64,000 nt of DNA from Styela clava (lineage: Eukaryota). Positions 3,550 through 49,727 of this stretch are shown one piece after another. The position numbers were made by a program, and so were the translations under genes. Numbering within the stretch: the first letter of the stretch is position 1; every line of letters starts with the position of its first letter. The notes below the pieces were generated by a model, which was not told the origin of the DNA, made no database searches, and saw only the letters and a program-made list of their open reading frames with translations. The stretch spans positions 10,602,001-10,666,000 of the forward strand of contig NC_135258.1 of NCBI RefSeq assembly GCF_964204865.1. The letters are read 5' to 3'.

Positions 3550-5292
3550 ATGTTACGACAAAACTATGCAAAAATATTAGTATGTATCATCATATCAGTA
3601 CTTATTCTGTTATTTCTGAAAGCAGAATATTTTGAATCAAAATTTAACCAACAGGAGCATGATATGAAGAACACACATGGTGTAAAATCGATGCAACATT
3701 CATTTTCATTAAGTTCTCACAATATGAATACAATGTCAAAAATTGGCAACCAGACAAAGGCAAGAAGTATGCATGTTAATGAGATAGAGAATGAATTACA
3801 GAGACTTAGAAGCACAATGGAATGTTTAGCATGCCAACCCCAAGAATCAGTCAAGCAGTTTTGCAGTAAATATCCCGGGAAGTATGGTTGTCCATCGTAT
3901 ATCATGGTCGGAATTACGATTTCTAATCGACCTGGATACACTAAGTTTACTTCGTCTGTTCTTCGGAAGTATAACAATATAGCAGAAGATGACATTCACT
4001 TGTTTGATGATGGTTCTAACAAATTTGATCTCAAAATATTAAAAACATTGTACGGCGATGGAATAAAGTACATTCAGTCAAAAAATAAAATAGGGAAATC
4101 AGAAACTATAAAGACCGTACTTGAAAACTTTCTAGAGGGAAATTACAAGTTATTGATTGTATTAAACGACGATATGATTCTGTTAAAAGATTGGATGAAT
4201 TTCATTGAAAAACATATCACACATACAGAAGGAATACTTTCACTTTATCATCCGTCCGTGAACCATAGTTTTGTTAATGATTGTGAATATCAACAAGGAG
4301 ATTTGTGTGTTGGTAAATCAATTGATGACTCTGGATTCGTTGTGACAAAATCTATTGCTAAAATCTTGGTTTCAGCTATTGATGTTTCTGTACTTGAATA
4401 TAAGTGGAAGGATTTACTCGGAAAACTTTCTGTTCAGATGTTTTACCCAGTAAAATCTCTCTCGATGCATATTGGACAGAAAAAGCAAGACAAAGAAAAT
4501 TGTGGAACAAATGAGGTTGCTCATAGGTTTAACAGATGCGAATATCCATCTTGGATAAAAGAACAAATCGAGTTTTACTTTGACAGATGCACAAGTCCCG
4601 ATGAAATTTATCCAGATAATCCAAACTCCGAAGAATTCAGAACAATAATGAAAAAAAGATTCTGGGTTCGACCGGCCATTTCTTATTCATTTTATGGATA
4701 CAAGACAAGATATGTTGCAATTGCTTTGGCAAATGCGGCTCGGCTATCGAGTGTTTATCCCGGATGGAAGATCTGGTTATTTCATGATAATTCAGTACCA
4801 GATCCTTATTTACAAACGTTTTGTGAATATGATGTCAGATTTATCGATATGACTGGAACGAAGTTAATAAACCAAATGTCCTGGCGCTTTTTAGCAGCTT
4901 CGGAGCCAGTTAAAAGATGGGCAATTCGGGATATAGATTCGTACTTGCTTCCGAGAGGAAAAGCGGCTGTGGACGAATGGATTTCTTCAGGCAAAAACTT
5001 CCACATCCTCAGAGATCATCCTAACCATTCACAACATCGAATAAATGGCGGCAGTTGGGGAGGAAATTCCGAAGCTATGCCTAATATGAGAGAAGAACTT
5101 GAAAAATATATCATCACCAATGCTTACATGGAAGACATGAATTTTTTAAAAAACGTTGTTTGGCCCGTTGCCAGACAATCAGCGTGGATAAATGATGCAT
5201 ACTCTCTCCACAAATTTGGCGATGATCATCCGTTTCCTACAAAACTTAAAATCGAATGGGCCTTTGTTTGCAACGTAATTTTGTGGCCTTAA
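3550..5292 (+). CDS. Intronless type II membrane protein, putative two-domain glycosyltransferase (copy A, intact, 580 aa)
   Basis: 580-aa ORF. N-terminal basic residues and a hydrophobic anchor (ILVCIIISVLILLFL) are followed by a stem and a Cys-rich segment. Next is a GT2/GT-A-like region (IMVGITISNR...IHLFDDGS...LIVLNDDMIL). A second domain reads ISYSFYG...YPGW...MSWRFL...RDIDS...EWISSGKNFHILRDHPNH...GGSWG and contains a DxD motif. A 3' splice acceptor (ttattttaag) lies 3 nt before the ATG. Confidence 0.85.
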   Translation: MLRQNYAKILVCIIISVLILLFLKAEYFESKFNQQEHDMKNTHGVKSMQHSFSLSSHNMNTMSKIGNQTKARSMHVNEIENELQRLRSTMECLACQPQESVKQFCSKYPGKYGCPSYIMVGITISNRPGYTKFTSSVLRKYNNIAEDDIHLFDDGSNKFDLKILKTLYGDGIKYIQSKNKIGKSETIKTVLENFLEGNYKLLIVLNDDMILLKDWMNFIEKHITHTEGILSLYHPSVNHSFVNDCEYQQGDLCVGKSIDDSGFVVTKSIAKILVSAIDVSVLEYKWKDLLGKLSVQMFYPVKSLSMHIGQKKQDKENCGTNEVAHRFNRCEYPSWIKEQIEFYFDRCTSPDEIYPDNPNSEEFRTIMKKRFWVRPAISYSFYGYKTRYVAIALANAARLSSVYPGWKIWLFHDNSVPDPYLQTFCEYDVRFIDMTGTKLINQMSWRFLAASEPVKRWAIRDIDSYLLPRGKAAVDEWISSGKNFHILRDHPNHSQHRINGGSWGGNSEAMPNMREELEKYIITNAYMEDMNFLKNVVWPVARQSAWINDAYSLHKFGDDHPFPTKLKIEWAFVCNVILWP

Positions 5293-6160
5293 ATTTGTCA
5301 TATTTTCCACCAGCCATGTTTTTAAAGCCTTTTCACAACAAAAAAAAAACTAAGTTCCCTACAATAGATGCAAAGCATCATAATTTATCTGTAATATTAT
5401 TTTATCAAGAATATAGGAATTCACTTGAGTTCATTTACTTTCCTAAAAGTGTAAGAATATTGAAATGGAAACATTTCCATTTGTATCACCTAGTTCCTAA
5501 GTTTCCTTACATCAGCGTTGAAAACGCCTTGTTTACAGTTAAACTGAATTAGTGGTTAGTGCCAAGAAAAGAGATTACCTAATTATACATGTGTCCTTCA
5601 TGAGAGTAGATGCAGATGCAGATGACTCGGCTCGCAACATTTTTAGTATTACTCGATGGAAAAGTTTCAATTTCATTCTTTCACTCTGCTCTCGTTTGGT
5701 ATTTGAGCATTTAACCTATTTCCGTGATTACCTTTACTTTATTTTAAAGCACACAACACTTGAATAAAAGCGATTGTGAGATGATATATATAACGTCATA
5801 AATACTGATTTACTTACGTCGCTCGATGTCACTGTTGAACTCTCTCTCTTTACTGCACGCTGTCTAGTGCTATGATTTATGATGTCTATGTTATTTTATA
5901 TCCATAATATACTCAAGCATCCTGAACAGTTGTGTATTTATCCACAAACAAACAAGCACTATTTGAGCATGCGTATGTGTATTAAATTGCTTTATTTTTT
6001 ATGGATGGGCTGATATTCGGATCAGGACTCGAGGAGAGTTTACGCATTTTTTGGAATCGTCATCGAGTCCACTTCATTTTTACTTGGTCTCTTATTCAAT
6101 TCAGGTAATTATGAATTGACGCCTCTAATGTACGCTCACCATTATAAATCTAAATAATCA

Positions 6161-6711
6161 AATGCAGCTCGACTATTGAGTGTTTATCTCGGATGGAAGA
6201 TCTGGTTATTTAAAGATAATTCAGTACCAGATCCCTATTCACAAACGTTTTGTGAATATGATGCCGGATTTGCCGATATGACTGAAATGAAGATAATAAA
6301 TCAAATGTACTGGCGCTTTTAGCAGCTTCGGAGCCAGTTAAAAGGTAGAAAATTTGGGATACAGATTCGTACTTACTTCAGAGAAGAAAAGCGGCTGTGG
6401 ACGAATGAATTTCTTCAGGCAAAAACTTCCACATCCTGAGAGATCATCCTAACCATTCACGACATCCAATAAATGGCAGGAGTTGGGGAGGAAATTCCAA
6501 AGCTATGCTATAGAACGTGAAAAATATATCATCACCAATGCTTACATGAGAGACATGACTTTTTTTATGAAACGTTGTTTGGCCCATTGCCAGAGAATCA
6601 GCGTGGATAAATGATGCATACTTTCTTCACAAGTTTGAAGAAGATTATCCTTTTCCTACCAAACTCAAAATCGAATGGGCCTTCGTTTCCAATATAATTT
6701 TGTGGCTTTAA
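6161..6711 (+). pseudogene. 3' fragment of the glycosyltransferase-like gene (C-terminal domain only), with stops and frameshifts
   Basis: Aligns by eye to 4732-5292, from aatgcagctcga to ttgtggctttaa. TGG>TAG and TGG>TGA stops and indels are present. 3' flank homology continues to about 6883. Confidence 0.9.
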
Positions 6712-8699
6712 ATTTGTCATATTTTTCACCAGCCATAATTTTAAAGCCTTTTCACACAAAAAAGTTCTTTAAAGTAGATGCAAAGCATCATAACTTGTGT
6801 TACTTCCTTTCCTTAGTTTCCTTACACCAGTGCTGAAGGCGCCTTGCTTTGCAGTTCAACTGAATTAGTTGTTAGTGCCAAGAATGGATTGAATCATGAA
6901 TAAATTCCAATATTGCTAAATAGGGTTTTTCAGTATATAGGCTATTCAGATATAGACATACCCTATATAGACATAGTTCATATGCCCTTTACTTTCTACA
7001 CTCTTCTAATTACTTTTGATTCCTTCTTATTTTCTGAATTTAAAATATATATATATATATATATATATTTTGCAGTTTTTAATGAATCAAAACTCGATCA
7101 AAATATGGATCGGTATAAAAGGTAAAATTACTTATAGTACCTACTCTTTTACGAGCATAACTAATATGCACGTATTTCACGCTTCAATTTCTGATATATA
7201 TAATTAAATAGCGCATTATTTAAACTATGATCCATTTTAACTACCTGGACTTCGTAGTCTCTGAGATTTCATGATCTCTAGCCGCTTGGTTTGCATTCCG
7301 TAGCCTATAACTAAATGCAGAAACACCAGTCGGAAATAGATCAATTCTCTAATTTTATTTACTCAAGCTGTGTCTACTACATCCGCATCGCTAGCATTCG
7401 TCAAAATAAGCTGCAGGATTGCAGAGGTAGATGCATATTTTGGTGACATTTAATTGGAGCTTGAGCAAATACTTCGTGCTACCGTAATACAAACACGAAT
7501 TTTCTACAGCGAACGCTAGTAATAGGGTATTGGAGGGGACATGGCTAGGGCAGGTATCCTACATAAAATAAAGTTCCAGCGTCTTATGACAAACGTTTTT
7601 ATAGTGCATATGATATAAACTGCGAGAAATAGTCAGATTCGGAGTCTACAACACTTCCATCATAGTCAGCGCCGGATTAACCGTTAAACAATACAAGCAC
7701 GTGCCTAGGGCAACAAGCCAAGAGGGGCACTACAGAAATTTTAGGGCAGAATTTTATATAGTTTATCGGTGTTTATTAAAATATTACAAGTTCACCAGAC
7801 GACTCAAACTTCAAAATGTTCGCTTATTTTTTGTCTCCAAGTATATATCATATCATCCTTCTTTGTCAAAAATAAACACTGAAACCTATTTATTGGACAC
7901 GAAAAGGGCCTATGAGTCGTTTTGTAAAATTGTTGTTGTTTTTTCTTTCTTGTATTCTCCTTGTTGCTGCATTTTTGTTTTAAAAAAAATTCTTTTCTCT
8001 TCAACAATTGGACCAATGAACTATTTGCATTATGTGACAGTTCGATGATCGCATTTCAACGATCTAGTGGTCAGCGAAGTCGGAATCCCGAGATTCAAAC
8101 CTTTTTTTAACGCTTTGTGCCTTCATTTTAGTAAAAACACTCCTCTGTTTCCAAGCGTGGGTCATGTGGCAGTAGTGACGAAACACAGAGCCGACTTAAC
8201 GCCGCGCAATCCAGTTTTTTTTCGGCAAGGTTCCGAAATACCAACTTAGGCGGACTTGGTGGTTATTTGACGATGGCACTAAGCTTGTTCACGCTGCAAG
8301 TTTTTAAATTACTCAAATATAACAATTCGTAATAAAATGATTGTCACAAGAAAAGTGACATAAGAAAAACACGGCGGAAACGTATTTCCTTGCCCATCAC
8401 ACAGTGTCTGGTTTGATTTCAAGTAATATCTGTCACGAAAGAATATAACTTAAAGCGACATCAAACGCGAGATGCGGAAAATACAACGTTAATTTTAGGG
8501 AATTAATTTTTAAATAACTGAAGGCTTTATATTTCTTCTTTGCAATACTCATGCAACAAAATAATAGTCTGATTAGAACGGTAAACTCTCGTTGTTTATT
8601 CAATTAAAAGTAAGTAAACTTGCGATATTTCGATCACTTTTGGGTTTTCTCCGACTTGTGGCCCACGAGACCTTTTCAAAAGTTTTTGCGGTCCTTCAA

Positions 8700-10322
8700 C
8701 AGGGTTGCCAACTGTTCAATGATAAAATAATCTAGAATTTTAACAAAAAATATCTGGAAAAAAACAAATTCAAAAATAATAAACCAAATAATAATCCAAA
8801 CATACACTAAAAAAATAGAAAAATATCAAGATTTACGGAGAGAAATTGGAAAGATATGAAATGTAAAGACTAGATTTTATACCTGTTGTTGTTGGAGCGT
8901 TGAGTGCAATATCAAACAAGCTAGAAGGTTATTTAAAAGATATGAATTTGCCTAATAGATTGGAATCCTTGCAAAAAGCGGCTCTTTTGGAAAGTGCAAG
9001 AATACTGAGAAGGGTTCTTGAAATCTAAGGACGCGGGAAGTGTCTCGATTTTAAGTTAAAATATACACCAGTTAAAGAACAGTGAATAAATTTAACATCC
9101 AAACATACAAAAGTTACCTTTTCAATGAAAAAACGAAAATTGTAATATAAAGAAAAATATTCACTCATATCAATACAGCTTTTCGAACTTAAGTAACGTA
9201 ACTTATTAATTATCATGAGAAAAAATGAAAGCTTGTTGCCTCCAAGATTTAATGAAGATCATGTAGGTAAATAGAACAATTGAATACTTGAAACTTTCTT
9301 TATTTTTTTTCAAATAAATGATATTTCGCAGCCTTCCGAGTTTTCTTAGGACGTAAGATGTTAAAATATTATTTGCAATCAATTCAAAAGATTTTCCATT
9401 TTTCAGGACACACCGTTTCTGAAAATACCAAAATTATATGATATCGTAAAGCAAAAATGCAATGAATCCATTCCTATGGTCCAAGCTCGACACACGTTTG
9501 GTCGAGTGTCGGGCGGTATTGTCGATGATAAATTAAAAAAAATTGTCACGCGTGGAGGAGGCAGTTCTTTCATTCGGACACTATCGAAGGACATTAGACA
9601 ACATTATTATATAACGATAATAACTGAAAACTTAGATTTTAGTACTAAAAAGTGTATAATACGCCATTTGTTTCAACACAGTATTTATAGATCACATAAA
9701 TTTTGAACAGTTCAAGGCATAATGAATTCGTTAAAATTCTTATATTCTTATATTCCAGACTGTTCGGTAACAAATAAAATCCAATCAATAATCCATCAAT
9801 ATGGTGGGAGAATTCCCAAATTTGAATAACAATAAAAATAAAATAGGATTCGGTATTCCGGGTTCGATTTAAGTATTCTATAATAGTAAATTATTTTATA
9901 TTGCCCATCCCTACTTATATATAGGGGTAAAATTAGTGAACAACAGCATTTCTGATTTCAGATTTTCGCATAACAACAGCATTCAGTTCACGTCACTTTC
10001 ACAGTTTCTAATACTTGACAATATTTTGGCTAACCTCTCTCCTTGTTTTGAATACTATTAACCTTGATTGGAAGGCTTTTCTGTAATAAATCCAGAAATC
10101 CTATCTTTTTAAATGTACTGTTAGGTACTAGTGAAAAAAACTTCACTTCGTTATCACTAAAGAACAATGCAAAATAACATTTGTCATAATGATCTAAATA
10201 TATCTAAATGAGTGCTAAAATTATCCAGAAAATAATCTAACATCTGAATGAATATTTGTTACATCTGAATCATACGAAAATAATCTAAATCTAGATTAAA
10301 ATAATTCAAGTTGGCAACACCG
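8700..10322 (-). mobile_element. hAT DNA transposon (decayed), inserted into a smaller hAT-like MITE
   Basis: TIRs cagggttgccaac / gttggcaacaccg. Perfect 8-bp TSD tccttcaa at 8692-8699 and 10323-10330. Minus-strand transposase-like remnants (DFWIYY; IGMDSLH...FRNG). Confidence 0.8.
8812..9028 (+). mobile_element. 3' end of an R4/Dong-like (RLE) non-LTR retrotransposon ORF
   Basis: Translates to KIEKYQDLRREIGKI*NVKTRF/IPVVVGALSAISNKLEGYLKDMNLPNRLESLQKAALLESARILRRVLEI*. This matches the typical C-terminus of restriction-like-endonuclease LINEs. Confidence 0.75.
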
Positions 10323-13761: not shown

Positions 13762-15320
13762 GGCTAAACGAACAATCCGTTTAGTAGCAATAGATCTTCC
13801 TCTGTTGTACTTTTTGACTGTTAAATTACATTTTTCTACAAAATCTGCCTAATTTATTTGAAATTTTACAGTAAATAGCAAAATCTTTTGTGCGAGAATT
13901 TCTGCACCATTCATAAATGACGGAATTGTTTTTTAAGTTTTAAAAATTTGAATTAAAAAAGGAACTTCAGTTTCATAAACTGCTAGTAAAAAAAAACGGG
14001 GTTATTAAGAGGTTTCTAATATGAACTAATGGGTGTGAGATTGTATATCGATATTGTTTTGAGCGTGATTCAGTCTGAATACTGAGATATCTAAATCAGG
14101 GTTTCCCAAACTGGAGGGCCAGGGGTCTAGCGACGAATTTTGGGGGTCGCGAAGGGGACACAAATTTCACACAAAGTTAGACCTTTAGTGAAACTAGTGA
14201 AAAACATAAATCTCACGATTTCGAATATGATCAGAGTAGCGGCGCGCTTGCATAACAATGCCGGCTTTGATTGTTAGACCCGAGATGTGGCGTGTTTCCG
14301 AATCACCCGCGGGCCGCACAGAAGTATCTAGCGGGCCGCATGCGGCCCGCGGGCCGTATGTTGAGCAGGCCTGCTGTGCAGTAATTAACTTAACTCTCTC
14401 TTACCAGAGAAGACCTTACGTTAAGCAATCCATGCTTAGCTTGATGGAAATGAATCATAATCACACAGTAGCGCAGTTGCCATAGACTGCACTGATTCAC
14501 TGTGGTTTATGCAATATTGCCATCACTGGACGTTTGAAACGAAAGAATAAACGTAGAACTCGTTTATTCATAGGGGTATAGAAACTTACACAATACGCGG
14601 ACGTAATTTATACTGCCAGATTTTGGGAAACGGGCCCTGGTATAAACCACGTACACAGTGGAATGCGTGTGTTCTGAGAATGTATTTGCGTGAAAATAAA
14701 CATCTGAACGGAAACAAGATACATGTACAAAATCTTTCTGCTTAAATCACGATCGTGCGAAATGCAACCCTGACAAATATATGTGAGTTTATGTGAGTTT
14801 CAGCCTTAGTTTAATTCTGCAATTGCGATTGCAGTAACGATGTGATTAACTACGCTAAAATTACTGAATTAGATATCAGTGGTCCACCTGTAAACAGCAG
14901 GGGGCTAGTTAATTTTTTAATAAAATTGCTGGTTTATAAATTTAAAAAGTGAAAAAAATTTCAATAGTAAAGTACGATATAGGGAGAAATTTTTAAGGTG
15001 TAGCACAAGTTCGAAGGTATATTACATACTGACAGACTGAAGCGGGACCCTGTATTGTATATATTGAATGATGAAATAATGCTTCCCGCTTGATATTTAT
15101 TCTACTTTCTACAGTTCTATAGGAACTTTACTTTCTATTTGTGTGCCCCACTGAATGAACTGGTGGCTCTACATCATCATCAGTACGTTGTCAAGGGCAT
15201 AAAATCTGACAAATCATGAGGCTTTTGTACTGAGTAAAATTGTTGGCTTTCTCTGGCTTTTTTATGTCTTGATTTGGCTTTTTTTGATCGTTGGGGTCTG
15301 GCAACTTTGACCCCCAAAAC

Positions 15321-15474
15321 CAGTCAAACAGTTTTGCAGTAAATACCCCGGAAAGTATGGTTGTCTGGCCATCGTATATCATGGTCGGAAATCGAAATTA
15401 CAATTTCCAATCGACCTGGATACACTAAGTTTACTTCGTCTGTTCTTCGGAGTATAACAGTATAGCAGATGATG
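15321..15474 (+). pseudogene. Small internal fragment of the glycosyltransferase-like gene
   Basis: cagtcaaacagttttgcagtaaataccccgg...tatagcagatgatg matches 3848-3991, with small insertions and a deletion. Confidence 0.9.
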
Positions 15475-17051
15475 TCGAGTGGCAAAATAATGTCTGATTG
15501 ATGATATATTCACTATTGATAGTTCCACTACTTCTTTAGATCAACATAAAATTCTAAAAAAGGGGAACGCTGTGTATATACATGCCTTATACGCTCTATG
15601 GGCAACTGGGCGATGAACAATGCAATAACGTCAATTTAGGCAAGCTGGTTACTAACTGCTATCCCCACTTACGTGGTTCACAAGTATCTATTAGTGAGTG
15701 CTGAATAGGTACCCTGGCCTATGGTACTTTGATGATACGACAAATTTGATCTTAGCTTATAATTATTTACGGCACATTACATTTACTCACACAATTACCC
15801 GTGTAGCGGCTTCTTTTTCCGTTGGCCAGCAGAACGATGGACAATTCTACAAGATTAAGGGGTCTGTCGAGGCTTTGTCCAAATCCAGGTAGACGACGTT
15901 AATTGGATATTTTAGGTATGAAAATTAGTTAGATAGATCGGTGGCTCTTCATGTTGGAAAATCTTTGTGTGTCACTTTCAAACTTGGTATCAAAACTTCT
16001 ATGTTATTGTGGTATGTATCACTTATTGTTCAATGTAAGGTACTTTTAGAATGTGCCAAAATAAATCCGAAGCATTTTGATGAGTGTAATGAAGAGGAAA
16101 AACTAAATATACAGTATATATTAGCATGCGAGTATGTAGGCTAATATGAAGTGACATGTAGTATTGTAAGATGAAGTTGCCATTCTTTGGTTTGAATAAA
16201 CGTTGCAGTAAATGACTTAATCTTACCAGAGCATTTTAGCAAAATACTACAGTATTTAGAAATCCTTGCTTCAGCTTGATTCTAAATTGAAATCAATGAA
16301 ATGAATCAAAGTGATCTATCTCTCCATATATTCATCAGTCAAATAGAGACATCAGCAAGAAAAAGCTAGTTTGGTGAATTTTAATCACACAGTAGCGCAG
16401 TTGTCGTAGACTGCGCTGATTCACTGTGGGCTACGAAATATCTCCACCATTGGATGTTTTTGACAAAAGAAAAACTGTGTTAATATGTAGAACTCATTTA
16501 TTCGTAGGAATATAGAAACTTGCACAATACGCGGGCGTAATTTATGCTGCCAGATGTTGGTAAACGACGCCTGGTATGAACCCCGCATACAGAATGTAAA
16601 CAATCTTCACAGATTACTTTTATCGAATGAGGCCATGGGCTCGTTGACCAATTGGGGTGGTGTGCTTACGCTTACAGAAACTCCAAATCGGCTATTGATT
16701 GAAATATGAAACACAACTTGTAACTAGCGTAAAGTAGATGTAATCATAGGGCGGATGTGAGCGTAAACCTTTATAATGTTGCTTGCGCATAAAAAGATAT
16801 AAAGTTGGCTGTGCACGTGGTTAAGAAAAACGTAAATTAGGAAATTAATGTTAAGATATCAGTTCGTTAAACTGTATAAATGAAGAATTTAAAAGGTGAT
16901 TTATTATGCGAAGACAATTGTAAACAGGAAAATTTGTAAATACCAATAACATGAGAAAAACACGGTAGCGATGTTGAAATATGTTATATATACCACAATC
17001 CTCGGTCATTCATATTCATTCATTCCATTCCATAATCAGTCATTCGTTTCA

Positions 17052-18940: not shown

Positions 18941-21900
18941 CCTTTTATCCAATTCAAGATTTCTAAATCACCTAATCGGCAAACTTATTAATTGGCAGAA
19001 AAGAACGATCGGTTTGGTCGGTCAATTGTAACAAATCTTCATCGTTTTTTGCTTTCTGTCAGCGCGGTAACTTAATATTCGCAGAGCCACTAAGATGCAA
19101 ATGGCAAATCATATAATTACTTGGTAACTGATTATTGAATAGCATTTGTAAGCATATACCAAAAACTGAAGCTTTTTGAACCGAATAACAAGAAGAGTTT
19201 TGATGAGAATTTCATATTTATTCTGGGGGAGAGGAAAGCTCGGGTTGGGGTTAGTCTAACTTTAACGATGATAATGATGTTTGCCAGGCCACAATTTCAG
19301 AATAGAAACTAAGTAACAGTATTGGAATTGACATGAAAAATAAAATAAAAGAACAACAATTGTATTATTACGATTTTACGATAATTGGGGCCATGGAGAA
19401 AGTATTTGGGAGCCAGTTATCTAATCTAATGTATAAGTTGTATTCGAAACCCCAAAGATTACACGTTGATTGTTGTATTCTTCAATAGGCGCTTCGCAGG
19501 CTTTTAATACGGCAAGGTCGCTCTAGAAATTTTCATCAATGATTATCTGAGAAAAAAACGGGCGCAGATCTTTTTCATTTCCCCTCTCATCAAACATACC
19601 CACCCGCATGTTCATCAAATTATGCTCACGGCAAAGGTCGCAGTACAAATAAAAGTTAAGCACGAAAATTTAATTTGATTAGTTTAAATGTTGAAACTAA
19701 TCATTGGGTGCTCGGCTTCATATTTAGTAGTATTATTGAAATATTGATAATATTCATTCAAGGACCAAACTAGAATCAACTTATTTTAATATTATGTTAC
19801 TAAAAAACTATGCAAAAATATTGGTATGTATCATCGTATCAGCACTTTTTCTGAAAGTTTTGAAAGCAGGATATTTTGAATCGAAATGTGACCAACACGG
19901 ACATGAAATTAAGAAAAGTTTCGATGTAAAAAAGTTGCTACAGCCTTATTCCAATATAAATGCAATGTCAAAAGTTGACAATCAAACAAAGACGAAAAAT
20001 ATGCATGTTTATGAGATAGAGAAAGAATTACAGAGACTCAAAAGAACAAGGGAATGTATAGCATGCCAACATCACGAATCTGTCAAGCAGTTTTGCAGTA
20101 AATACCCCGGGAGGTATGGTTGTCCATCGTATATCATGGTTGGAATTACAATTTCCAATCGACCTGGATACACTAAGTTTACTTCATCTGTTCTTCGGAA
20201 GTATAACAATAGAGCAGAAGATGATATTCATTTATTTGAATATGGTTCTAACAAATTTGATCTCAAAATATTAAAAACATGGTACGGCGATGGAATAAAG
20301 TACATTCAGTCAAAAAATAAAATATGGAAACCAGAAATAATGAAGGCTGTACTGGAACACTTTTTGAAAACAAATTACAAGTTATTGATAGTATTAAACG
20401 ACGATATGATTCTGTTAAAAGATTGGATGAATTTCATTGAAAAACTTATCACGCATACAGACGGAATACTTTCACTTTATCATCCATCCATGAACCATAG
20501 TTTTGTTAAATGATTGTGAATATCAACAAGGTGATTTATGTGTTGGTGAATCAATAGATGATTCTGGTTTTGTTGTGACAAAATCTTTTGCTAAAACTAT
20601 GATTTCAGCAATTGATGTTTCTGTACGTGAATATGGGTGGAAGGATATACTCGAAAAACTTCCTGTTCAGATGTTTTACCCAGTAAAATCTCTCTCGATG
20701 CACATTGGACAGAAAAACCAAGACAAACAAAATTGTGGAACAAATGAGGTTGCTCATAGGTTCAACAGATGCGAATATCCATCTTGGATAAAAGAACAAA
20801 TCGAGTTTTACTTCGACAGATGCACAAGTCCCGATGAACTTTATCCAGATAATCCAAACTCTGAAAAATTTAAAACAATAATGAAAAAAAAATTCTGGGT
20901 TCGACCGGCGATTTCATATTCATTTTATGGATATAAAACAAGATATGTTGCAATTGCTTTGGCAAATGCGGCTCGGCTATCGAGTGTTTATCCCGGATGG
21001 AAGATCTGGTTATTTCATGATAATTCAGTACCAGATCCTTATTTACAAACGTTTTGTGAATATGATGTCAGATTTATCGATATGACTGGAACGAAGTTAA
21101 CAAATCAAATGTCCTGGCGTTTTTAGCAGCTTCGGAGCCAGTTAAAAGGTGGGCAATTCGGGATATAGATTCGTACTTACTTCCGAGAGGAAAAGCGGCT
21201 GTGGACGAATGGTTTTCTTCAGGCAAAAATTTCCACATCCTGAGAGATCATCCTAACCATTCACGACATCCAATAAATGGCGGGAGTTGGGGAGGAAATT
21301 CCGAAGCTATGCCTAATATGAGAGAAGAACTTGAAAAATATATCATCACCAATGCTTACATGCAAGACATGAAATTTTTAAGAAATGTTGTTTGGCCCGT
21401 TGCCAAAGAATCAGCGTGGATAAATGATGCATACTCAATCCACAAGTTTGGTGAGGATCATCCTTTTCCTACAAAACTTGAAATCGAATGGGCCTTTGTT
21501 TGCAGCGTAATTTTGTGGCCTTAAATTTGTCATATTTCTCACTAGCCATAATTTAAAAGCTTTTTTACAAAATAAAAACTAAGTTCCTTACAGTAGATGC
21601 AAAGCATCATAATTTATCTGTAATATTACTTTATCAAAAATATAGTAATTCACGTGAGTTCAGTTACTTTCCTAAAAGTCTAAGAATATTGGAATTGAGA
21701 TATTCCCATTTGTGTTACTTACTTCCAACCCAATAGGATCGGCCTGGTCATGAATGGCCAATCTGTGTCATAATTTGGGAATATGGCTGAATTAAATGTA
21801 TTTTGGGGGGTCAATAGTATTTCATAGTTGTCTGCATGTGAACAAAACCAATTTCAAAACTCAAAATGTTTGAGTTTAAATTATCCATGCTTGATCCGAG

Positions 21901-24578: not shown

Positions 24579-26567
24579 AATAGACCTTAGTTCAAAACCC
24601 ATCCTATACGCGCGAAAAATAAAAGTGACATGAACAAACAAATTTTGTCATTATCTCTTACGGAGAATGTGATCACCAAAGCAGAAATTTGCATTTTTTG
24701 TTATTTTTTTAGTTATCCTTCATTGTAGACGTGTGCAGTTTTGAGGATAGAATATTTTTTATATACTTTTTTATATACTATAATGGGCGTGGTGTTTCCG
24801 CTGGCGTCATTCTCACTATCCAGGGTCGTCCAACCTTTTGGGATGAAGGGCCACGCCCACATGTAGTTTACAAATAATTGCGCGGGCCACTTAACATGGT
24901 AGTTATGTTCTAGTTTTGCTACACTGACTACAGGTTAATGATAAAACAAAGAATACTCTCACACCAAACTTTCACAATTATGTTGTCACAAGACTGTTGT
25001 TTCCCAACCATTGATGGCGCACCATCAGTGGTTATTCCCGAAAGTTTCGCCAAAGACAAGCCTAGACGCTTGATCATTTCCATCACATCTTCTAACAAAT
25101 CAACGCCTCTAGACGTACCTTTAATAGGGACAATGGTTGCGAGCTCTTCGGTAATTTCAAAATCATCATTAACTCCCCGCAAGAAGATCGCCAAATGAGC
25201 AGTAACCTTGATGTCAGTGCTTTCGTCAAGCGCCAAGGATTACGATGAAAATTTTTCCGTTTTTGCAACTAAAGTTTCCGCTATAGAGTTTCCAAACTCT
25301 ATAACACGACGAGTTCGCAAACACCTCTTTTATTTCCGGACGTAAAACATTGGCAAACCGAACAATACATAATATACATTCCTTAAAGAATTCTCAGTTT
25401 GTGAATGGCTTCGATTGTTTTGCGATAACGTCATATAGAGTAGTAAAAGACCAAGTGTGTAAGCGACTATGGCACCTTTATTTATCGATATCTCCTCTTA
25501 GTTGGTTTCGATTCAAAATGACACTCATGGCTCGTTGGAAAGGGCTGGCAAAGCGCATTTTAGTAAATAAACAAATCGTTTGTATCACATTTTCGTATGC
25601 TACATCACTCAAAATATAGTTTCGCTCAATTTTTCTAATCAATTCTGAAAAATAAAGCGGGGCACAGGTTGGACGACCCTGCAGTATACCATGACATTCT
25701 GCTAACGCGTTGTGGTCTGTGAAATATGCGCTCCAACTGCTCGTGTTTCTTATTATGTGATAACAAAATACCGGAACCACAACATACCGTGTTTGGCGTT
25801 TAAAGAAAGACCTATTTTAGTTAGTAAAGTTTATCCAGAATGGCAGTCTGTTCACGTATTCAGTCATATTCACTTTTCCTTACTGGCTTTGCGCATATCC
25901 TTCCTATACAGCGAGCGACTTTTCTCTGAAGGCATGCTGACGTGTTTTTTAATCTAGTTGGGATTTTAATATTGAATTTAATGTAATAGTTTGGAGATAT
26001 TTATCTCTGTTTTTGTATACAACTTATCCTACCTGACCTATTTGCTGAAATTTCCGTTACCCCTAGGTACGGTACAGGTAGTTTAAAATAAATAACACGT
26101 CAGCTTGCCTCCAGTAGATGGTTGCTAACTGTACAGGTATAAATGCGTGAAACCAGTAAACAAACGATAGTGAAACGGTATAGATAATAGACTGCCAATG
26201 TCAAACGCTTCCAGTACCGGTACTCGAGGCGACATTAGCGCTGCAGTTAGCGCGCATATTTCACAGGTTGGCAGAATGTCATGGTCTAGGTGGAGTGACG
26301 TCACCGGCAACACCACGCCCATTAAAATTTTAGTGTACGATTATCAAAAAACTTGACCATGTTTATCGTCATAAAAATATGGAAGAATATCTAACAATCA
26401 CTCTATATATAAAACTGTCCACGTTTACAACGAAAGATAAATAAAAAATGCAAATTTCTGCCCTGGTGATCCCATTCCCCATAAGAGCCAACCAATGTTA
26501 AAATTGTTTTGTTGATTTCACTTTTATTTTTGCGCGTAGAACGGGTTTTGAATGACTAAGGTCTATT
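24579..26567. mobile_element. Foldback-type non-autonomous DNA element with long (about 240-280 bp) imperfect TIRs
   Basis: 24579-24815 is the reverse complement of about 26292-26567 (aatagaccttag...taatgggcgtggtg / caccacgcccatta...ctaaggtctatt). Confidence 0.8.
24821..25681 (-). mobile_element. Internally deleted hAT transposon, GTF2IRD2/SPIN-like transposase fragment
   Basis: Perfect 16-bp TIR cagggtcgtccaacct. ORF 24928-25236 reads ALDESTDIKVTAHLAIFLRGV...ITTDGAPSMVG (hAT catalytic D motifs). The TSD is degenerate. Confidence 0.9.
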
Positions 26568-27189
26568 GCAGAAGTGGTTGAATACAGGGTAATAGTGAGC
26601 TAAAAGGCTCCAGAAACTAGTCGGCGTAATAACTACGGTTACGGTTGAGTCTGTAGCTTGGATAGTGGCAGCGGAAAATTCTACCAAAATGAATCAGTGT
26701 GATTTGGGCATAGTCTAACTCTAGTAATCAAATTAGAACAAGGAGTGGTAGAGACTTCTCACTCTCGTCTGGTAGATATCGGTCGCTTCACCTTGCGATT
26801 GAGTTCCGTAAGAATTAGCATGCAATCGCTGATTCACATTTCCTCAGACAAGTCATCAAAATTACCTTGCCTCCAGTCCGTTCGCCCTTTATACGGGAAA
26901 TTGGGTTCTAAAAGGACTGAATTCAAGTACATGTTCTGATTCAAATATTGGATCTGCAAATGTCCATGGACTAACCAACTTGCCCAATGTGTAACAAAAT
27001 GGTTAGGCAATGCCGTACCGGAAAATATCCCGGTTCTTCCAAACTGTAGTAGCATCTTACCTAGCAGTGTCTGCTCATATAGAATCTTGTTCGTACTTTG
27101 ATAAACGTAAGCATGTCAACACGTGTAGCCTCAGTTAAGCGGTAGGAAACATCAAATTCATTATTACTTATCAATTTTAATCGGTATGT

Positions 27190-27470
27190 AGATAGGTATT
27201 TGTCTGTCTGTCTGTTAGATGCACGCGATATCTCACGAAAGCCAGATTGAATCTGCTCCAAATTTTGCATGTGCATTCAGCATATGTCGGACCAGAAGCC
27301 TATCGATTTTGGATGAAATATGTCGTATAATAAGCGAGGTATTAATTGATTAGTGATGGGACACAAGGTGTCACTATGGAGTAAGAACGCTGTTTTGGGG
27401 GATCCCCTAACGTTCGATCGATAAGTCTTCGGTCTCTGACCGATATTATCGTTTATTTTTTTATTCCGTC
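27190..27470 (+). mobile_element. Possible Helentron-associated (DINE/HINE-like) interspersed element
   Basis: A tgtctgtctgtctg microsatellite is followed by a gatatctcacgaaa...ccaaattttgcatg core. This is pattern resemblance only. Confidence 0.35.
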
Positions 27471-27639: not shown

Positions 27640-29337
27640 TCACAAGACGTTGCTATTGCTTTCAAATGCAATGACAGAAGCAGACTTTTTAGCCAAAGGC
27701 CAAATAATTTCTTTTAAAAATGTTTTTTCTTTGCCATTTACATTTTTTTCAAAGTACTTGCTTATTTCATCTCGCATGATGTGTATTGCATCATGTGTTC
27801 CTCCCCACTTGACAGATGAATTTTCACTGGAATTGTTTTTTATGATACAAAACTTTTTTCCTGATGATATCCATTTATCCACAGTGGCTTTTTCTCTGGG
27901 AAACAAATAGGAGTCAATATCTCTTACAAGCCATCTTTTTACCGGTTCTGATGCGATTGCATATCGCCAAGTCTTTTGGCTGGGATATTTTTCTTTACTT
28001 ATGTCTATAGTTTTAATGTCGTACTCACACAGTGATTTCAAATAAGGCAGCGGTATGGAACTATTAACAAAAAACCATATTTTCCACCCCGGATATACAT
28101 TGGATACCCTAGCTGCGTTTCCAATGGCACTAGCGACATAAGTCGCTTTGTGGTCGAGAAACGAATATGAAATAGCTGGTCTAACCCATAATCGTGTTCT
28201 CATCTTTGTTATGAATACTTCTGAATCTGGATTATCGGGATAAATTTCATCAGAACTTGTGCATCTGTCGAAGTAAAATTCGATTTGTTCTTTTATCCAA
28301 GATGGATATTCACATCTGTTAAACCTATGTGCAACCTCATTTGTTCCACAATTTTCTTTATCTTGGTCTTTTTGTCCAATATGCATTGTTAGCGATTTTG
28401 CTGGATAAAAAAGATGGATTGATTCATCATGAAGTAATCTATTCAATCCTTGTACTATTTTAACGCCATCAACTTTTGAAAGCCACGATATAGCAAAAGA
28501 TTTTGTCAAAACGAATCCAGAATCTGCTATTGAGTCTCCAACGCATAAATCGCCTTGTTGATTTTTACAATCATATGCATAGCTATGGTTTACGGACGGG
28601 TGATAAAGTGAGAGTATTCCGTCTGTATGTGTGATATGCTCTTCGATGAAATTCATCCAATGTTTCAGGAGAATCATATCGTCATCTAATATCATCAGTA
28701 GTTTGTATTTTGATTTTATGAAAACTTCAAGAGCTCGTTTGATAACATAATGTTTTCCATACATTTGTGCAGTCCAGAAGTATTTTACATATTTTCCATA
28801 AAATCTGTGCATTGTCTTTGCATTTATTTTATCTGATCCATCGTTGAATAAGTGAATATCAGTTTCCGCTATATTATTGTATTTACGGATCACTGAAGAG
28901 GTGAATTTAATGTAACCAATTTGGTTATACACAGGTATCGCGATCATAATATAAGAAGGACAGTAATATTTTCCTGGATACTGAGCGCAAAATGTCTTCA
29001 CTGGTTCTTGAGGCTGGCAAGCGAGACATAGCCTTATTTTTTCTAATCTGGATAGTTCCGCATTTATCTCTAAAACGTGAGGAGAAATTTTCCCTCTCGT
29101 ATTTCGTTTGAGGTCTGTGGTTACTCGTTGACGAACATTCCATCTTTCTTGCTCAATAACTTTTTGACTTCCGAAAGCAATGTGGTCTCTGAGTGAGACT
29201 GCTTTCATAAGGATTCCTTGGTGACATTCTTCTTTAAAACAAAAATGACACCAAGCGCCGAAGAAAATAGCACACACTACACTAATCAAATATAAGAATA
29301 ATCTTTTTTGCGTTTGTAGAATACGCTTTGCTGCCAT
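27640..29337 (-). CDS. Intronless divergent paralog of the two-domain glycosyltransferase-like protein (copy C, intact, 565 aa)
   Basis: 565-aa ORF with a TM anchor (LFLYLISVVCAIFFGAW). GT2-type motifs IAIPVYNQ, FNDGSD and ILDDDMIL are present. The C-domain retains RDIDS but lacks HILRDHPNH. An acceptor (ttttattccgcag) lies 1 nt before the ATG. Confidence 0.85.
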   Translation of the reverse strand: MAAKRILQTQKRLFLYLISVVCAIFFGAWCHFCFKEECHQGILMKAVSLRDHIAFGSQKVIEQERWNVRQRVTTDLKRNTRGKISPHVLEINAELSRLEKIRLCLACQPQEPVKTFCAQYPGKYYCPSYIMIAIPVYNQIGYIKFTSSVIRKYNNIAETDIHLFNDGSDKINAKTMHRFYGKYVKYFWTAQMYGKHYVIKRALEVFIKSKYKLLMILDDDMILLKHWMNFIEEHITHTDGILSLYHPSVNHSYAYDCKNQQGDLCVGDSIADSGFVLTKSFAISWLSKVDGVKIVQGLNRLLHDESIHLFYPAKSLTMHIGQKDQDKENCGTNEVAHRFNRCEYPSWIKEQIEFYFDRCTSSDEIYPDNPDSEVFITKMRTRLWVRPAISYSFLDHKATYVASAIGNAARVSNVYPGWKIWFFVNSSIPLPYLKSLCEYDIKTIDISKEKYPSQKTWRYAIASEPVKRWLVRDIDSYLFPREKATVDKWISSGKKFCIIKNNSSENSSVKWGGTHDAIHIMRDEISKYFEKNVNGKEKTFLKEIIWPLAKKSASVIAFESNSNVL

Positions 29338-31408: not shown

Positions 31409-33727
31409 CGCAAAAATGAGACAGAATGGTTCGTGTTCCATACCGCGTGTAGTTGGATCTACTCAATAATTTACGAAATTGTACACGCCTGTATGTTGCA
31501 CTTTCTACTTTTAATCGTATATTTTAAAACATTTTATATTTGCAGTCTAATCCAATGAAACCTACTGTTCACTCCACGTGCTGCCAATCGAGTATACTAA
31601 GCTTGAAAGTTCTATAAATTTCCTTTTACAAATTCCATTGCAGAGTTCAAGAAAATTGACTGTTACTTCAACTACGGAACCTTTATCTTTGTTACCCATA
31701 TTCTGTTTCAATGGGGGTTTTAAGAAAATCGGTTCCTTGGATTTCAACCTTCTGAATTCAACTGATCCTGGGAAAAATGAAAAACTGGATTGGATTCTTA
31801 CATCAGACCAACAGTATTGTCCTTTCAGCTGTCAGTATGGCAACCTATCAGACGAAAATTTGGCATAAAATTCTCTATGGATGATTTTACTTATGAATGT
31901 AAGGTAAATTATTTGCGGCAAATTCAGTTACAAATATTGTTTTCTTAAAATTAACATCATTCTCTTTCGTAAATTATTATGGATTGCAACGAATTGTCTC
32001 CTGATCCACCGAATCCTGCTTCTAGGAAACTGTCAATGTCATCTTCTGAAGATTCGCTTTCATCGTCAGATTCATCTGAACCTAATTCAGTTAGGGAGTC
32101 CGTACATTCCGATCCTGGATCTCCACCATCGTCAGAACCTTCAATATTGTTCACGTCTCTGAAATAAAAATAGCAAAGTGCAAGTGTTTATCTAATGACC
32201 GAGTGCATTCGCTTTGCTGGATATTCGATATAGATTACGGCAGGAATGATAGGTATTTTTCCTGCGATTCAATTTGATGTGATTGAAATTCGATTTCCGC
32301 TCGATTTGAGTCCAATTTTGAGAAAATCCAATTAACGTGGTAAATTATCCGTGTAACGAAAGACACAACGTCTGATGCGTAAAGACGTTTAGTCAATAAA
32401 CACAGGTTACGTTTTCGGTTCGCTTATTGGGAAGAAAAAGAGCAAAAATAAGAGGATAATACAAATATATCGTAGAAATAGTTATCGGACAGAGCAAATA
32501 TATTAGTATCATTCCTATACAAATCGGACAATGGAACGGCAACACACTTCTCGTGAAAGAAAAATTAAATAAGTTCATTTTTGTGTATATATAAATATTG
32601 AAAATGGATTACTAGATACAATTACAGTAGAAATTTTACTAATGTATCTTACACTAAAAAAAAGACCTAGCCCAAATTTGAAGACCGCAGTTTTGCCTTA
32701 ACATATTATGTAGTTTATGAGTATATATATATACTGTATTGAATTGAATGAGCCTGTAACGTGAAAGGTTGGAGCGTTTTTAGAGAAAGCAATTTTTTGA
32801 GCAGTCATAAAGAATTTTACTTGGCATCTAAGGCATTGGCTGTATCATCATATAATTCCGCACTATTCATACTCTCATCATCATCAGATCCACTACCAGA
32901 ATCTCCTCCATCCGAATCATCGTCATCACTTACAGCCTCTCCATGTTCTTCATACGCTTCTTCTATAAATAACAAGGAGAGAAAATTAATATTGGCAAAA
33001 TAAATTTTTGTTGTTAGGTCGACTTTTTGGTGCGGGAAAAATCGCTTTTCTCCGGACAGACACTATATCGAGTCACATTCGACTATCAGATCAATTACAA
33101 TAACGTCTGCGACGCATCATGAATATCAACTCTCAGTACTTAAAATGGACGTAATCGCCAGAAAGCTATTACTTTCTATGAGATTCTACGTTTATGCCTT
33201 ACAAGCTCGCGAGGGGCATTATCCAAACCTTGATTGTTGCAGGAGAAATCCAGTAATATTTTCTTTCGATTGAACTTTCCTAAATTTCATGATCTATTTC
33301 ATAACACGCGGTAAACGATATACGTAAAACATTGTTACTTTTTGCTTGTATGTGTTGTTAATAAGAAGGTATGGTGGGTAAGAAGGCAAGGTAAGAAATG
33401 TTGGCAAATTTCGGCATCATGAAGGATACGGGTTAGGTATTTAATCTAGTTCTCTTTTACTAGACCTCGCGTATCACTCTTTACAATAAATGATGTTTTA
33501 TTAAATGACCAGAAAAAATGATAGCTTCTTTTTTAGCCTGTTACAGAATATGTTATACTAGGGAAAATATTAATAATACTTGTAAATACATTCGGACGCT
33601 GGATTCTATATATTGTAAGACCGATATTCCACATGTTCATATAAACTGATGTCACCTGGTTCGGGTTCTTCATCGTCACCTTCGTCGTCTGAACCTGACC
33701 CTCCTGAATTTGAACTTCCAATTCCAG
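31409..33727 (-). CDS. Phase-compatible exons of an unknown protein with acidic Ser/Gly/Asp-rich segments (33656-33727, 32821-32962, 32010-32158, 31566-31767, 31409-31488)
   Basis: All exons are flanked by AG/GT with matching phases (1,2,1,2). They encode GGSGSDDEGDDEE, DSDGGDSGSGSDDDE and GSDDGGDPGSE...ESSEDD. Exon 3 could instead run on to the stop at 31957. Confidence 0.55.
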
Positions 33728-35771
33728 CTTTTGAATATACGCATTGGAAACACAATGCAAAATTGTCAAAAAATCTGAAAAAAAAAGTTTTTTCTATTTT
33801 ATATACTCTTAAACAATTATATATATTATGGACAAGCAAACAATGATACATAATGTGATGTCGTCATCAAAAAATTAAAAATTGCGCACCGCGTGGTGGT
33901 TCCGCGATCGCATATTAGCGAGCTTGTGGTCAGCGAAGTCGAGAGTTTTTCGGTAAGAAAGACTACCGGTATTGTGAAAAAATTGATTACTGGTTCGTTC
34001 TGGTCTTCTCGTCCATATATTTGAGCATAGTTCTCTTGTTCGTTACATCGCGTTTGAAACATACACAATAATACATTCATCATCTATTATTTTACTTTTG
34101 TCATCTCAAAAGAATAAGACTATTTAAATAAGATACAACGATTTTGGAATGGATGCAGACAGTATAAAATTATCTGATCTTTCACATTTTCAGGTTGTAA
34201 ATTAGAACAAACATATTCAAGCTAAAAACTACCGTACACAGTGTTGCATTTTACTATAACAGGGTTCAACTTGGGCTCACTCTATATTCTACGAAACCTC
34301 TGACAGGAAAATACAAGCACGAAACAAGAAAGTGTAAATTTGAAGCCTCTAAATAGGATTAACGGATGAAGTAAAGGTTTACTACGTTACATATTGTGTT
34401 GACGAAGAAATTGGAGCAAACAATCTCCTGCGATTCAATTAGAATAACTAAAATAATATTATATAACCCTGAAACGAACAATTAGGATTTTAAGAATAGC
34501 TTATGTCACCTTTTTACGGTATTGTCTGTTCAATTTTCAATCACGGTGTCGATATCGACTGAATCACTAAATGGAATTTAACCTATCGATCTGATGGCCC
34601 AGTTATGCATGACTTGAAATCGACTGAATCCGACTAATGAAATTATTGTTCGATAATATTTGTTTTATCGTATTGTTTTGCTGCAGAATTTATAAAACTG
34701 TTTCAAGACGACAGATACAAAGATGTTTTTGATCGAATCTAATTGCGATATTTTGTAAAAAAAAATACTGCATAAAATGGTTTAAACTAAACACTAATAT
34801 TCGTATTTTTCGTCTTTTATGCATAAAATGGTAAGAGTTATAGTTTAATAGAAGCAAAAATATTGATGGTATGACATAGTATGCACATTTATATACTATA
34901 TGCATACGGCTACCTAAAATAAATATTAATCGTAAAATGCGACGAACGAACTCAAATAAAGTTGCGTACTCACTCAGTACTATGAAGCAATTTTACGATC
35001 ACATTTTATATATTTAATGATTTTCTCTATTTGGTACCTAATATCTACCGGGTTCAACAGCATTCCCGACAGAAAAAAACAATTTGTAGGTTGAATTCTG
35101 GCAGTTTTAATAGTCAATCAGCAGAAAAAATCACGTAACCGTCGCGTGTCAACTTCTTAAATTAACACCGTATCTCCACGGTTATTGGTTGTAGTTGTGC
35201 ACAATGTTAATGGCATAATGTGTCGTTCTCGATATGCAGATACCAACCTTCCGAAATGGTGAATTTCTTGTTGTTTCCTACTTGTATCTTATTAATTTGT
35301 TTGTAGAATCATATTTGCATAGTATTCCAATATACTATCTTTGCTGCATTTTTGTTATGGGCGATATGAACAATAGACATGGCTTTTTTATTGTTATGTC
35401 ATTTTTTTTTTTTTCAGGTAGTGGCCGAATTTAAATAGTTTTATTCTATTTAATTCCCAAAACAAATTCCAGGTCATGGCGATTTATCAAGAAAACAGAT
35501 AGTTTTTATTTATCAAGATCATTTCTATAAGATAAATAAATTGAACATCATAAAATAACTCACTATTTCATCATTTCACTCACTCATTTCAAATATTCAT
35601 CGTCTTGTGTTTTCGTTTATTAATAATTTAAAGCAAACCCATGGTCTGTATCGTGAAAATATGTGATGAATTCGCGTATCGGAAATTTTGATTTTATCAA
35701 TTTTTCGTTTTCCAGCGACTAAGTACCGTCATGTTTTACAAATAAGCTTTCTTTGCGAAATATATATTATG

Positions 35772-35847
35772 CAGTGGTGAGATTCAGCCGGTTCGCACCG
35801 GTTCTATAGAATCGTCTCACGGAATTTTTTGAGATCAGCGAACCGGT
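35772..35847 (+). mobile_element. hAT element left end (cagtggtgagattcagccggttcgcaccggttc)
   Basis: CAGTGG terminus with repeated ccggtt subterminal motifs. No partner end was seen. Confidence 0.5.
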
Positions 35848-36033
35848 CCGAAGCCTCAACTAAAAGTGGGAAGAGTACTAATAGAAGATTTAATGTAGAC
35901 CACTGGAGCAATAGCGGCTATATATAGATTTACTCCTGTGATAAATATGTCAGTAGTTAAAGCTTTGAAACAATAAGATAGATGATGAGTTCTACAACCG
36001 GTTACTTGACGGAGAAAACAAATTGTGACTCAC

Positions 36034-39000: not shown

Positions 39001-39064
39001 ATAATTGATCTGGGAATTAATCTCTTCGTTCTGAATTATTTTTTGATTGTTTCCACCAAAGGTT
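36034..39064 (-). CDS. Two large exons (38358-39064, 36034-36919) of an unknown Cys/Ser-rich, probably disordered protein
   Basis: Open frames of 248 and 303 codons in AT-rich DNA. Acceptors tatatag and atttatag, donors gtaagc and gtgagt. The phase-1 junction is compatible (YC-E-CCC). Scattered CxxC motifs. The start exon was not identified. Confidence 0.65.
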
Positions 39065-39770
39065 CTATATAAAAACAAAAATTTGTGAGAAAAGTTACGT
39101 TATCAACCGGGCTACAAGAAATAAAAAATCAGGAATATGGAAAAAAATACATATTTCCCATTACAGAACAATTCGATGAGGGATCGCAGTTTTCCTTTTT
39201 AACTACCAAATCACAATAGCTAAATACATCATTCAGGTCATTACGTAGAAAGCTTTTCAGGTTGCACTACCCGCAATGGTTGTGGTCAAAATGCATTGCA
39301 TTTATACCAACACTAAAAAAAGTTATAACTCCTAATGTGACACAATTACTCCAGTTCTTGCATACTATCTAAAATCTATGTTAAACCGTTTTGATTCTGT
39401 AACCGAGTACAAGAGACTTGTAAAATCTATCCTACTACCTTTTGCATCACTGAAATCAGCTTATTGCTAATGACGATTAAATCTCGGTGGACGGTGACGT
39501 TACCGTGTGTGACGGTTCGAACTCTTGTTAATTAGCGGTCTATATATTCACGTAAAGCCTGGAAGTTAGCGATCGATGTTTCAATGGTTTGATTGAAATG
39601 TCAAAGGAGACATCCCATTGATTGTGAATTAGCAGCACCAAGACCTATAGTTTTCCGATAGTGCGGTAATTCGTTAACCATTAGCGATAACCTTTTTATT
39701 GCAAGTTATTGGAAAAAAGGTTGCGTCTTTGGAATCAAAATCAATTTTAATCAAAAAGTGTACCTGCTAT

Positions 39771-49257: not shown

Positions 49258-49727
49258 ATATATATGGGTCTACTATAGTTTAGTACCACAATTACTTCGG
49301 GTGGGCGTTGCGTAACGAATTTTGCATATGCTATTCCTAACCCCCACCTGACTATGCCATCCAAAAATTACGTCACTACGACGTCACCATCACGTCATAG
49401 GGATTGCCAAAGTGTAACTACGATCGCCCGAAATAACATCTGCGCCGCCGATAACGAACTTGCTGAAGCCGACGATCTCTCTCCTATCGTGATCGTTGTG
49501 ATGAGAAAACGTGAGAGATTGATTGCTCGATTTCGGGTGATCGTCTGCGCGTTTTGGACGACCATCCGCATACTTCGGTGGGCCTTATTACGCCACTGTG
49601 ACGTCGAAATGACATAATTTTTCGGTGACGTAGTCAGGTGGGGGTTAGGATTGACATATGCAAAAATTGTTGAGCCAGGTCAACTAGAAGTACATGTGGT
49701 ACTAAACTATACCAGACCCATATATAT
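49258..49727. mobile_element. MITE with about 110-bp imperfect TIRs, inserted in a (TA)n site
   Basis: atatatatgggtct..tagtttagtaccaca..cctaacccccacctgacta / tagtcaggtgggggttagg..tgtggtactaaacta..agacccatatatat. Confidence 0.85.

Follow-up and report, generated by a model that had tools for sequence, protein, structure and literature searches.

The window, i.e., the whole stretch of 64,000 nucleotides of the tunicate Styela clava that was analyzed, carries at positions 3550–5292 (+) an intact ATG-to-stop open reading frame coding for a protein of 580 residues (P0001). This single-exon coding sequence specifies, in order: a predicted type II membrane anchor (aa 7–25; 3568–3624, +), which is the top hydropathy window of the protein (mean of 2.64) and whose topology is likewise a prediction; a stem with one truncated copy of a Cys-rich repeat (aa 89–115; 3814–3894, +); a first domain (D1; aa 116–356; 3895–4617, +), which is an eroded GT-A module resembling the GT2 family; and a second domain (D2; aa 370–580; 4657–5289, +) with a predicted GT8/GT34-like GT-A fold, which belongs to a family without a name. 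The preliminary description of this DNA was attached to 4678–5292, i.e., to the second domain alone of a two-domain gene, and it included neither the 16-copy family to which the gene belongs nor the catalytic erosion of D1.

The string of C-terminal motifs with which that description began is present in its entirety: all eight pieces occur in the right order between aa 377 and 504 of P0001 (ISYSFYG, RYVA, NA, YPGW, MSWRFL, RDIDS, RGKAAVDEWISSGKNFHILRDHPNH and INGGSWG). A profile of the family, run against 1.84 billion protein representatives, recovered 5,379 proteins at E ≤ 1e-3, 915 of them at E ≤ 1e-30, and hence the motif match lies far beyond chance. The statement that these motifs typify an uncharacterized DxD family of microbes, viruses and scattered invertebrates was also sound, as the D2 family is common to bacteria, phages, proteins of microbial-eukaryote type and some invertebrates.

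The coding sequence had been described as free of introns, and transcripts agree: contigs from three RNA-like runs of three studies run through it with no intron-type joint, spanning 3587–5954 in X1 and X8 and 3552–5288 in X3. That these runs are RNA follows from the CT..AC introns of the adjoining minus-strand gene, which are skipped in the same three; they also leave most of the unique flanks of P0001 bare, and a DNA-like run covers 30 of 30 bins. Most of the P0001 coding sequence is present in 13 runs from one organism and four studies. Downstream of the stop codon, 5293–5954 (+) forms a transcribed 3′ extension, likely the 3′ UTR, seen in RNA contigs X1 and X8 from two studies. The X3 contig, from one of the RNA runs, joins 5288 to 6708 over 1419 bases with 18 shared letters, which reflects either an allele without a partial duplicate of D2 or an assembly join between repeats. 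P0001 is a working host gene that is single-exon, expressed and under selection.

Its neighbors do have introns, as had been stated: a minus-strand gene is spliced in the same runs, and a multi-exon gene with DOMON and copper monooxygenase domains (DBH/MOXD1-like) occupies 51754–56382 (−). A spliced gene at 31500–39100 (−) combines large Cys-containing exons with Asp/Ser/Gly-rich exons and has two splice forms at 36919; the three of its exons that were scanned gave no Pfam match. Repeats and other elements at 7600–8700, about 26800–27450, 24928–25239 and 49258–49727 include high-copy repeats (whose depth in the DNA-like run rises to 36,000), a long imperfect palindrome and a DUF4371 fragment of the kind typical of hAT transposases.

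Further copies of the gene are scattered over the window: a broken partial duplicate of D2 at 6158–6705 (+; 87% DNA identity) with stops and a frameshift; a short remnant of the stem and the start of D1 at 15310–15559 (+); a recent full-length duplicate at 19794–21521 (+; 89% DNA identity), in which two frameshifts disrupt the reading frame; and an intact, transcribed paralog of 565 aa (P0002) at 27640–29337 (−). In P0002, D1 keeps a DDD, and D2 no longer has its RDHPxH, DMxF and C-terminal motifs, its His motifs included—the reverse of most copies. A division of labor is possible. Across the host genome (377 Mb), 23 matches to D2 were found, 16 of which are long single-exon ORFs that sit on the chromosome-scale contigs C10, C13, C17 and C18 (each of about 20 Mb) amid intron-rich host genes. 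All 16 are intron-free in their coding sequence and 15 have an N-terminal hydrophobic stretch; in a copy on C13 (L009:1530–2897), the first ATG falls at the start of D1, leaving it anchorless if there is neither an exon further 5′ nor an alternative start. The dN/dS values of paralog pairs are 0.08–0.46 for D1 (13 pairs) and 0.07–0.25 for D2 (nine of the 13 pairs, the other four being saturated), and the family is under purifying selection. Retroposition, one of the earlier proposals for the lack of introns, found no favor in the genome-wide searches, which returned just the single-exon family and fragments.

In D2, P0001 retains R460-D461-x-D463, H485, D489, H493 and D529. The DxD motif, D461-I-D463 (4930–4938, +), is invariant in all 117 aligned family members, as is the R-D-x-D that contains it, which lies at the end of strand E87–91 of the structural model. 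This AlphaFold2 model of the domain (pLDDT 95.5; pTM 0.91) gave 208 matches at E ≤ 1e-3 when compared with the PDB using Foldseek, the top ones being GT-A enzymes, such as AvpGT, glycogenin, the Skp1 galactosyltransferase and domain 1 of PBCV-1 A064R (TM 0.51–0.59). The GT8 enzymes glycogenin and Skp1 galactosyltransferase are among the best of these (TM 0.54–0.59; E of about 1e-5) and likewise have a GT-A core with a DxD; D2 differs from GT8/GT34 in having no Pfam match, in showing just 10–16% identity to the GT8 matches and in possessing RDHPxH and GGxWG motifs of its own. No Pfam, NCBIfam or PHROG family reached its cut-off for D2, with the GT8 and GT34 profiles remaining unmatched. Glycan-related genes adjoin D2 in 19 of 23 viral and seven of 12 bacterial loci (26/35, as raw counts with no background control, with 89 of the 144 listed neighbors scanned and three loci dropped). 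As modeled, D2 very likely functions like a glycosyltransferase of the GT8/GT34 type that lies outside any named family. A C-terminal metal-binding His is a feature of GT8/GT34 enzymes. The D2 family has a near-invariant His (114 of 117 rows) that is a candidate for this role; 12 of the 16 host copies keep it, and Asn takes its place in P0001 (Asn548) and in two further copies on C10, and the P0001 copy may owe to this an altered or reduced activity.

The sole meaningful match of the D2 sequence profile to a solved structure is domain 1 of PBCV-1 A064R (E 0.0014, with the DxD aligned; TM 0.51 by fold). This GT34-like GT-A domain with a DxD is a Mn2+-dependent retaining β-L-rhamnosyltransferase (PMC9614988); at about 15% identity, its donor and acceptor are not transferable to D2. 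Both A064R and A111/114R of PBCV-1 (PMC9614988) resemble the virus-type proteins considered here in stringing several glycan-enzyme modules together into one polyprotein. Most PBCV-1 glycosyltransferases are predicted to be soluble and to be without an ER/Golgi signal (PMC9614988), in contrast to the anchor and Cys stem of the polyproteins considered here.

D1 is a GT2-like GT-A domain with 32–37% identity to the D1 modules of virus-type proteins. Its likeness to GT2 had been drawn from two motifs, of which DDGS is indeed present (aa 153) and IPVYN is found in the paralog at 27640–29337 instead; the likeness itself survives, and the bacterial kinship that was attached to it finds no support, since the bacterial GT2s are far off in the D1 tree. 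PF00535 (GT2) is unmatched in P0001 and P0002; of the 14 virus-type proteins with a D1, 10 exceed its cut-off. A profile built from viral D1s alone matches the host D1 at E 1e-64. FDD, DxD and a catalytic Asp are functional motifs of GT2 enzymes. P0001 retains the FDD, has NDD in place of the DxD and is missing the Asp of the FDW motif; FDD, DxD and FDW are all complete in 14 of 14 virus-type D1s as against none of the 16 host copies. The search of the 1.84 billion representatives with the D1+D2 profile was examined for the best 150 of its 5,379 matches, among which a full D1 occurs in 14 modular glycosyltransferase proteins (E 1e-46 to 3e-60) besides three two-domain relatives (P0005 included). 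The 14 are mostly long and combine D1 with FkbM, GT10, GT29, galactosyltransferase, GT8, LicD and other modules. No named animal D1 stands among the matches listed, and a viral D1 used as a query on the host genome gave 19 matches, all inside the P0001 family; weaker relatives of D1 in protists or other animals could lie beyond the best 150 of the 5,379 matches.

The stem repeat, present in zero to four copies in the paralogs, is homologous to the repeat of the virus-type polyproteins: a virus-only repeat profile matches P0001 at E 0.004 and the best paralog repeats at 2e-9 to 1e-5, and in a scan of 420 stored sequences it matched solely virus-type polyproteins and the P0001 family, with every D2-only carrier being devoid of the repeat. 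Among 15 virus-type polyproteins examined, an N-terminal hydrophobic stretch was found in 13 (the remaining two being truncated at contig ends) and the Cys repeat in 10, and a viral N-terminus as a query on the host genome recovered 12 matches, all in the P0001 family. With both the anchor and the Cys repeat behind it already in place in these relatives, the anchor probably did not arise in the animal, and the proposed domestication of the gene by addition of a Golgi-type anchor finds no support.

The close relatives of D1 are encoded on 18 marine contigs, of which the 16 examined are 80–98% coding with no sign of introns; their neighbors on these contigs include Snf2, trypsin-PDZ, Ras, SET, DHFR, dUTPase, ubiquitin and nucleotide-sugar enzymes. 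As many as 14 of the 18 share 2–18 further genes, often in collinear order, with the IMG/VR record G001 (179 kb), which at the same locus has an anchor and Cys-repeat polyprotein built of other modules; D1 and D2 are both absent from this record despite the anchor and repeat. A scan of 81 ORFs of G001 revealed polB, Rpb2 (E 8.5e-125), PCNA, M16, trypsin-PDZ, heliorhodopsin and Ras, and a terminase large subunit was detected (phrog_2, E 6.5e-14). Rpb1, TFIIS, TBP and histone were not seen among these 81 ORFs of a record put at 50% complete, and neither was any nucleocytovirus capsid family. G001 has a capsid candidate of 615 aa, which is 41–78% conserved in 21 other viral contigs and, as a query, had no match in the host genome. 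Terminase, polB, RNA polymerase, trypsin, M16, heliorhodopsin and Ras form the mix of genes described for the Mirusviricota (PMC10132985), and G001 and its syntenic contigs share it. Among the traits of that group, a terminase stands for packaging of the Duplodnaviria type, polB and RNA polymerase make up an informational module like that of nucleocytoviruses, and trypsin, M16, heliorhodopsin, TBP and histone are enriched among the core genes. G001 and these contigs are likely mirusvirus, in which case the 615-aa protein would be a candidate for the major capsid protein with an HK97 fold.

In the D1 tree, the host copies and P0003–P0005 form one clade (100/100), which groups with viral modules (99/89) and lies well apart from the GT2s of bacteria and phages. 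The deepest row among the virus-type D1s is L193, which shares zero genes with G001. Since an AU test allows the host to lie outside all virus-type D1 modules (p = 0.42), the D1 topology speaks for kinship and leaves direction to other evidence. Such evidence comes from the D1 motifs, complete in the viral modules and in no host copy, which together with the absence of introns argue for transfer from virus to host.

In the D2 tree (66 of 182 rows used, with the full set run in FastTree), the host clade (100/99) lies inside a clade of 44 rows (99/88) that unites D2s of polyproteins with eukaryote-like ones, the rows nearest to it including three Mercenaria proteins and eukaryote-like proteins (88/89, not starred), and the prokaryote and phage D2s form a separate clade (100/98) with 30–39% identity. 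Other modules of the virus-type polyproteins are shared by 20 of 134 D2 carriers. One such carrier, P0078, has a module in common with a polyprotein on contig L177 (73% over 255 aa), and on this ground D2 belongs to the same pool of modules as D1. D1 and D2 within one virus-type protein were not found among the virus-type proteins and G001 examined, and searches of IMG/VR contigs yielded no close D2, just the phage type at 36–43% identity. P0039, from a contig of 1.8 kb, has a C-terminal part of D1 followed by D2; it groups with the clam D2s outside the host clade and may represent a D1+D2 fusion in a further lineage.

Our best explanation, to which we assign a probability of roughly 0.68, is that P0001 is a single-exon, expressed member of a 16-copy family whose founder a tunicate ancestor probably took up from a large DNA virus of the sea (likely a mirusvirus), and that it likely acts as a Golgi-type glycosyltransferase via D2. 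Of the earlier proposal of horizontal acquisition from bacteria, it is the acquisition that persists and the bacterial donor that falls away. One viral gene with both D1 and D2 modules would have entered the germ line whole, with its anchor and stem, and DNA duplication, both in tandem and to dispersed sites, would have spread the family. The protein would reside in the secretory pathway or Golgi with its domains in the lumen, and D2 would bind a nucleotide sugar and Mn2+ via D461-x-D463 and transfer a single sugar, probably by the retaining route of GT8/GT34. Stripped of catalytic residues, D1 may persist as a pseudo-enzyme with a structural or acceptor-binding role. As for the product, a glycan of the surface, mucus or tunic is probable, which is a guess from tunicate biology.

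An alternative donor would be a marine microbial eukaryote—a prey organism or symbiont—with a modular glycosyltransferase exchanged with mirusviruses, making the virus a cousin of the source. Mirusviruses integrate widely in protists (PMC10827195), the neighbors of D2 include many anchor-bearing eukaryote-like proteins and the EukProt protein P0045, and both the missing viral D1+D2 fusion and the AU test, which leaves the nesting unforced, are in keeping with such a route. We nevertheless consider it unlikely: the close D1 relatives for which there is genomic context all lie on contigs that are gene-dense and free of introns, with 14 of the 18 sharing at least two genes with the virus record; the host copies are without exception intron-free in their coding sequence; and the carriers of D2 alone are all without the Cys repeat. 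Improbable, too, is a flow in the reverse direction, wherein an ancestral invertebrate glycosyltransferase family, mostly lost in animals, was captured by viruses. The chromosomal D2 genes of the clam Mercenaria close to the host clade, and P0039 with its D1 remnant and D2 among the clam rows, might be read in this way, but the clam genes bear a different upstream module that is decayed there and intact in the polyprotein pool. Moreover, the ancestral GT2 motifs, as seen in bacterial and phage GT2s, are kept in the virus-type D1s and partly lost in all host copies, and a named animal D1 is wanting among the matches listed.

Direct transfer from a bacterium or phage, with a Golgi anchor being gained thereafter in the animal, would account for a D2 that is common in bacteria and phages and for a GT2-like D1. 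It is highly improbable in view of the distance of the bacterial and phage GT2s from D1, the separate clade and low identity of the D2s concerned, the domain contexts of the D2 relatives inspected (stand-alone, TPR-fused or in other fusions, without the Cys repeat) and the anchor and repeat that the virus-type relatives already have. A contaminant or a viral fragment that lies inert in the genome, which virus-like sequence in an animal assembly and several broken copies in the window might suggest, is refuted by the chromosomal placement of the 16 long ORFs on four 20-Mb contigs amid intron-rich host genes, by transcription in three studies and by purifying selection, with the capsid candidate, unmatched when used as a query on the host genome, likewise speaking against it.

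The viral origin we favor has a partial parallel in tunicate CesA and GH6-1 (PMC7464555, PMC10334666), which are likewise horizontally acquired and retained glycan genes; CesA, like D1, is of the GT2 family. CesA is described there as probably bacterial, whereas the P0001 family is virus-linked, intron-free and expanded, with its GT2-like domain eroded. The cellulose synthase of the host itself is multi-exon, has a single genome match and contains QRSRW, and the possession of such a gene points to a tunicate.

Knowledge of mirusviruses comes mostly from metagenomes and the genomes of protists. A survey of their host range excluded Metazoa (PMC10827195), and the term "glycosyl" is absent from the main text of PMC10132985 and PMC10827195, whose supplements may list such genes. 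Within the literature outside subscription journals and supplements, neither the family, nor the viral polyproteins related to it, nor a transfer of this kind was found to be reported. Multidomain viral glycosyltransferases and acquired tunicate glycan genes are known kinds; a domesticated and expanded animal family tied to mirusvirus-like polyproteins did not turn up in that literature. If this origin is correct, mirusvirus gene flow would extend to animals and a viral source would be added to the acquired glycan genes of tunicates. The gene also offers a handle on a large unnamed glycosyltransferase family, with thousands of representatives and no Pfam model, in phages, bacteria, protist-like proteins and invertebrates.

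The clam Mercenaria mercenaria presents a similar arrangement in XP_045197646, XP_053390898, XP_053406061 and XP_053406069, in which, as in the host, the GT-like module upstream has decayed and D2 is intact; there is an anchor in the full-length proteins, the upstream module is different from D1 and the Cys repeat is lacking. Members of this clam family (P0042, P0051, P0063 and P0202) are encoded by several chromosomal genes, in which a decayed polyprotein module of another kind precedes the intact D2. The clam genes are possibly a second capture, parallel to that of the tunicate family. More tentatively, and with somewhat less than even odds, we suggest that mirusviruses carry a hotspot of membrane-anchored glycosyltransferase polyproteins with interchangeable modules, that cassettes from it were captured more than once by animals—tunicates receiving anchor, Cys stem, D1 and D2, and clams another module with D2—and that in both, the upstream module decayed and D2 was kept and amplified. 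On this reading, a mirusvirus-derived family would have been domesticated in a chordate, a fossil sign of such viruses reaching animal germ lines, and a new glycosyltransferase family would stand behind the surface glycans of invertebrates. The hotspot itself is a variable glycosylation locus on related virus-type contigs (L177, L181, L184, L186, L187, L191 and L205), where, mostly beside SET, Ras and DHFR, an anchor and Cys-repeat protein of 500–2200 aa has modules that vary from contig to contig. A further virus protein in G001 (L211:629–12838) reaches 4070 aa, with a stretch of hydrophobic residues at its N-terminus and a match of EGF-like type.
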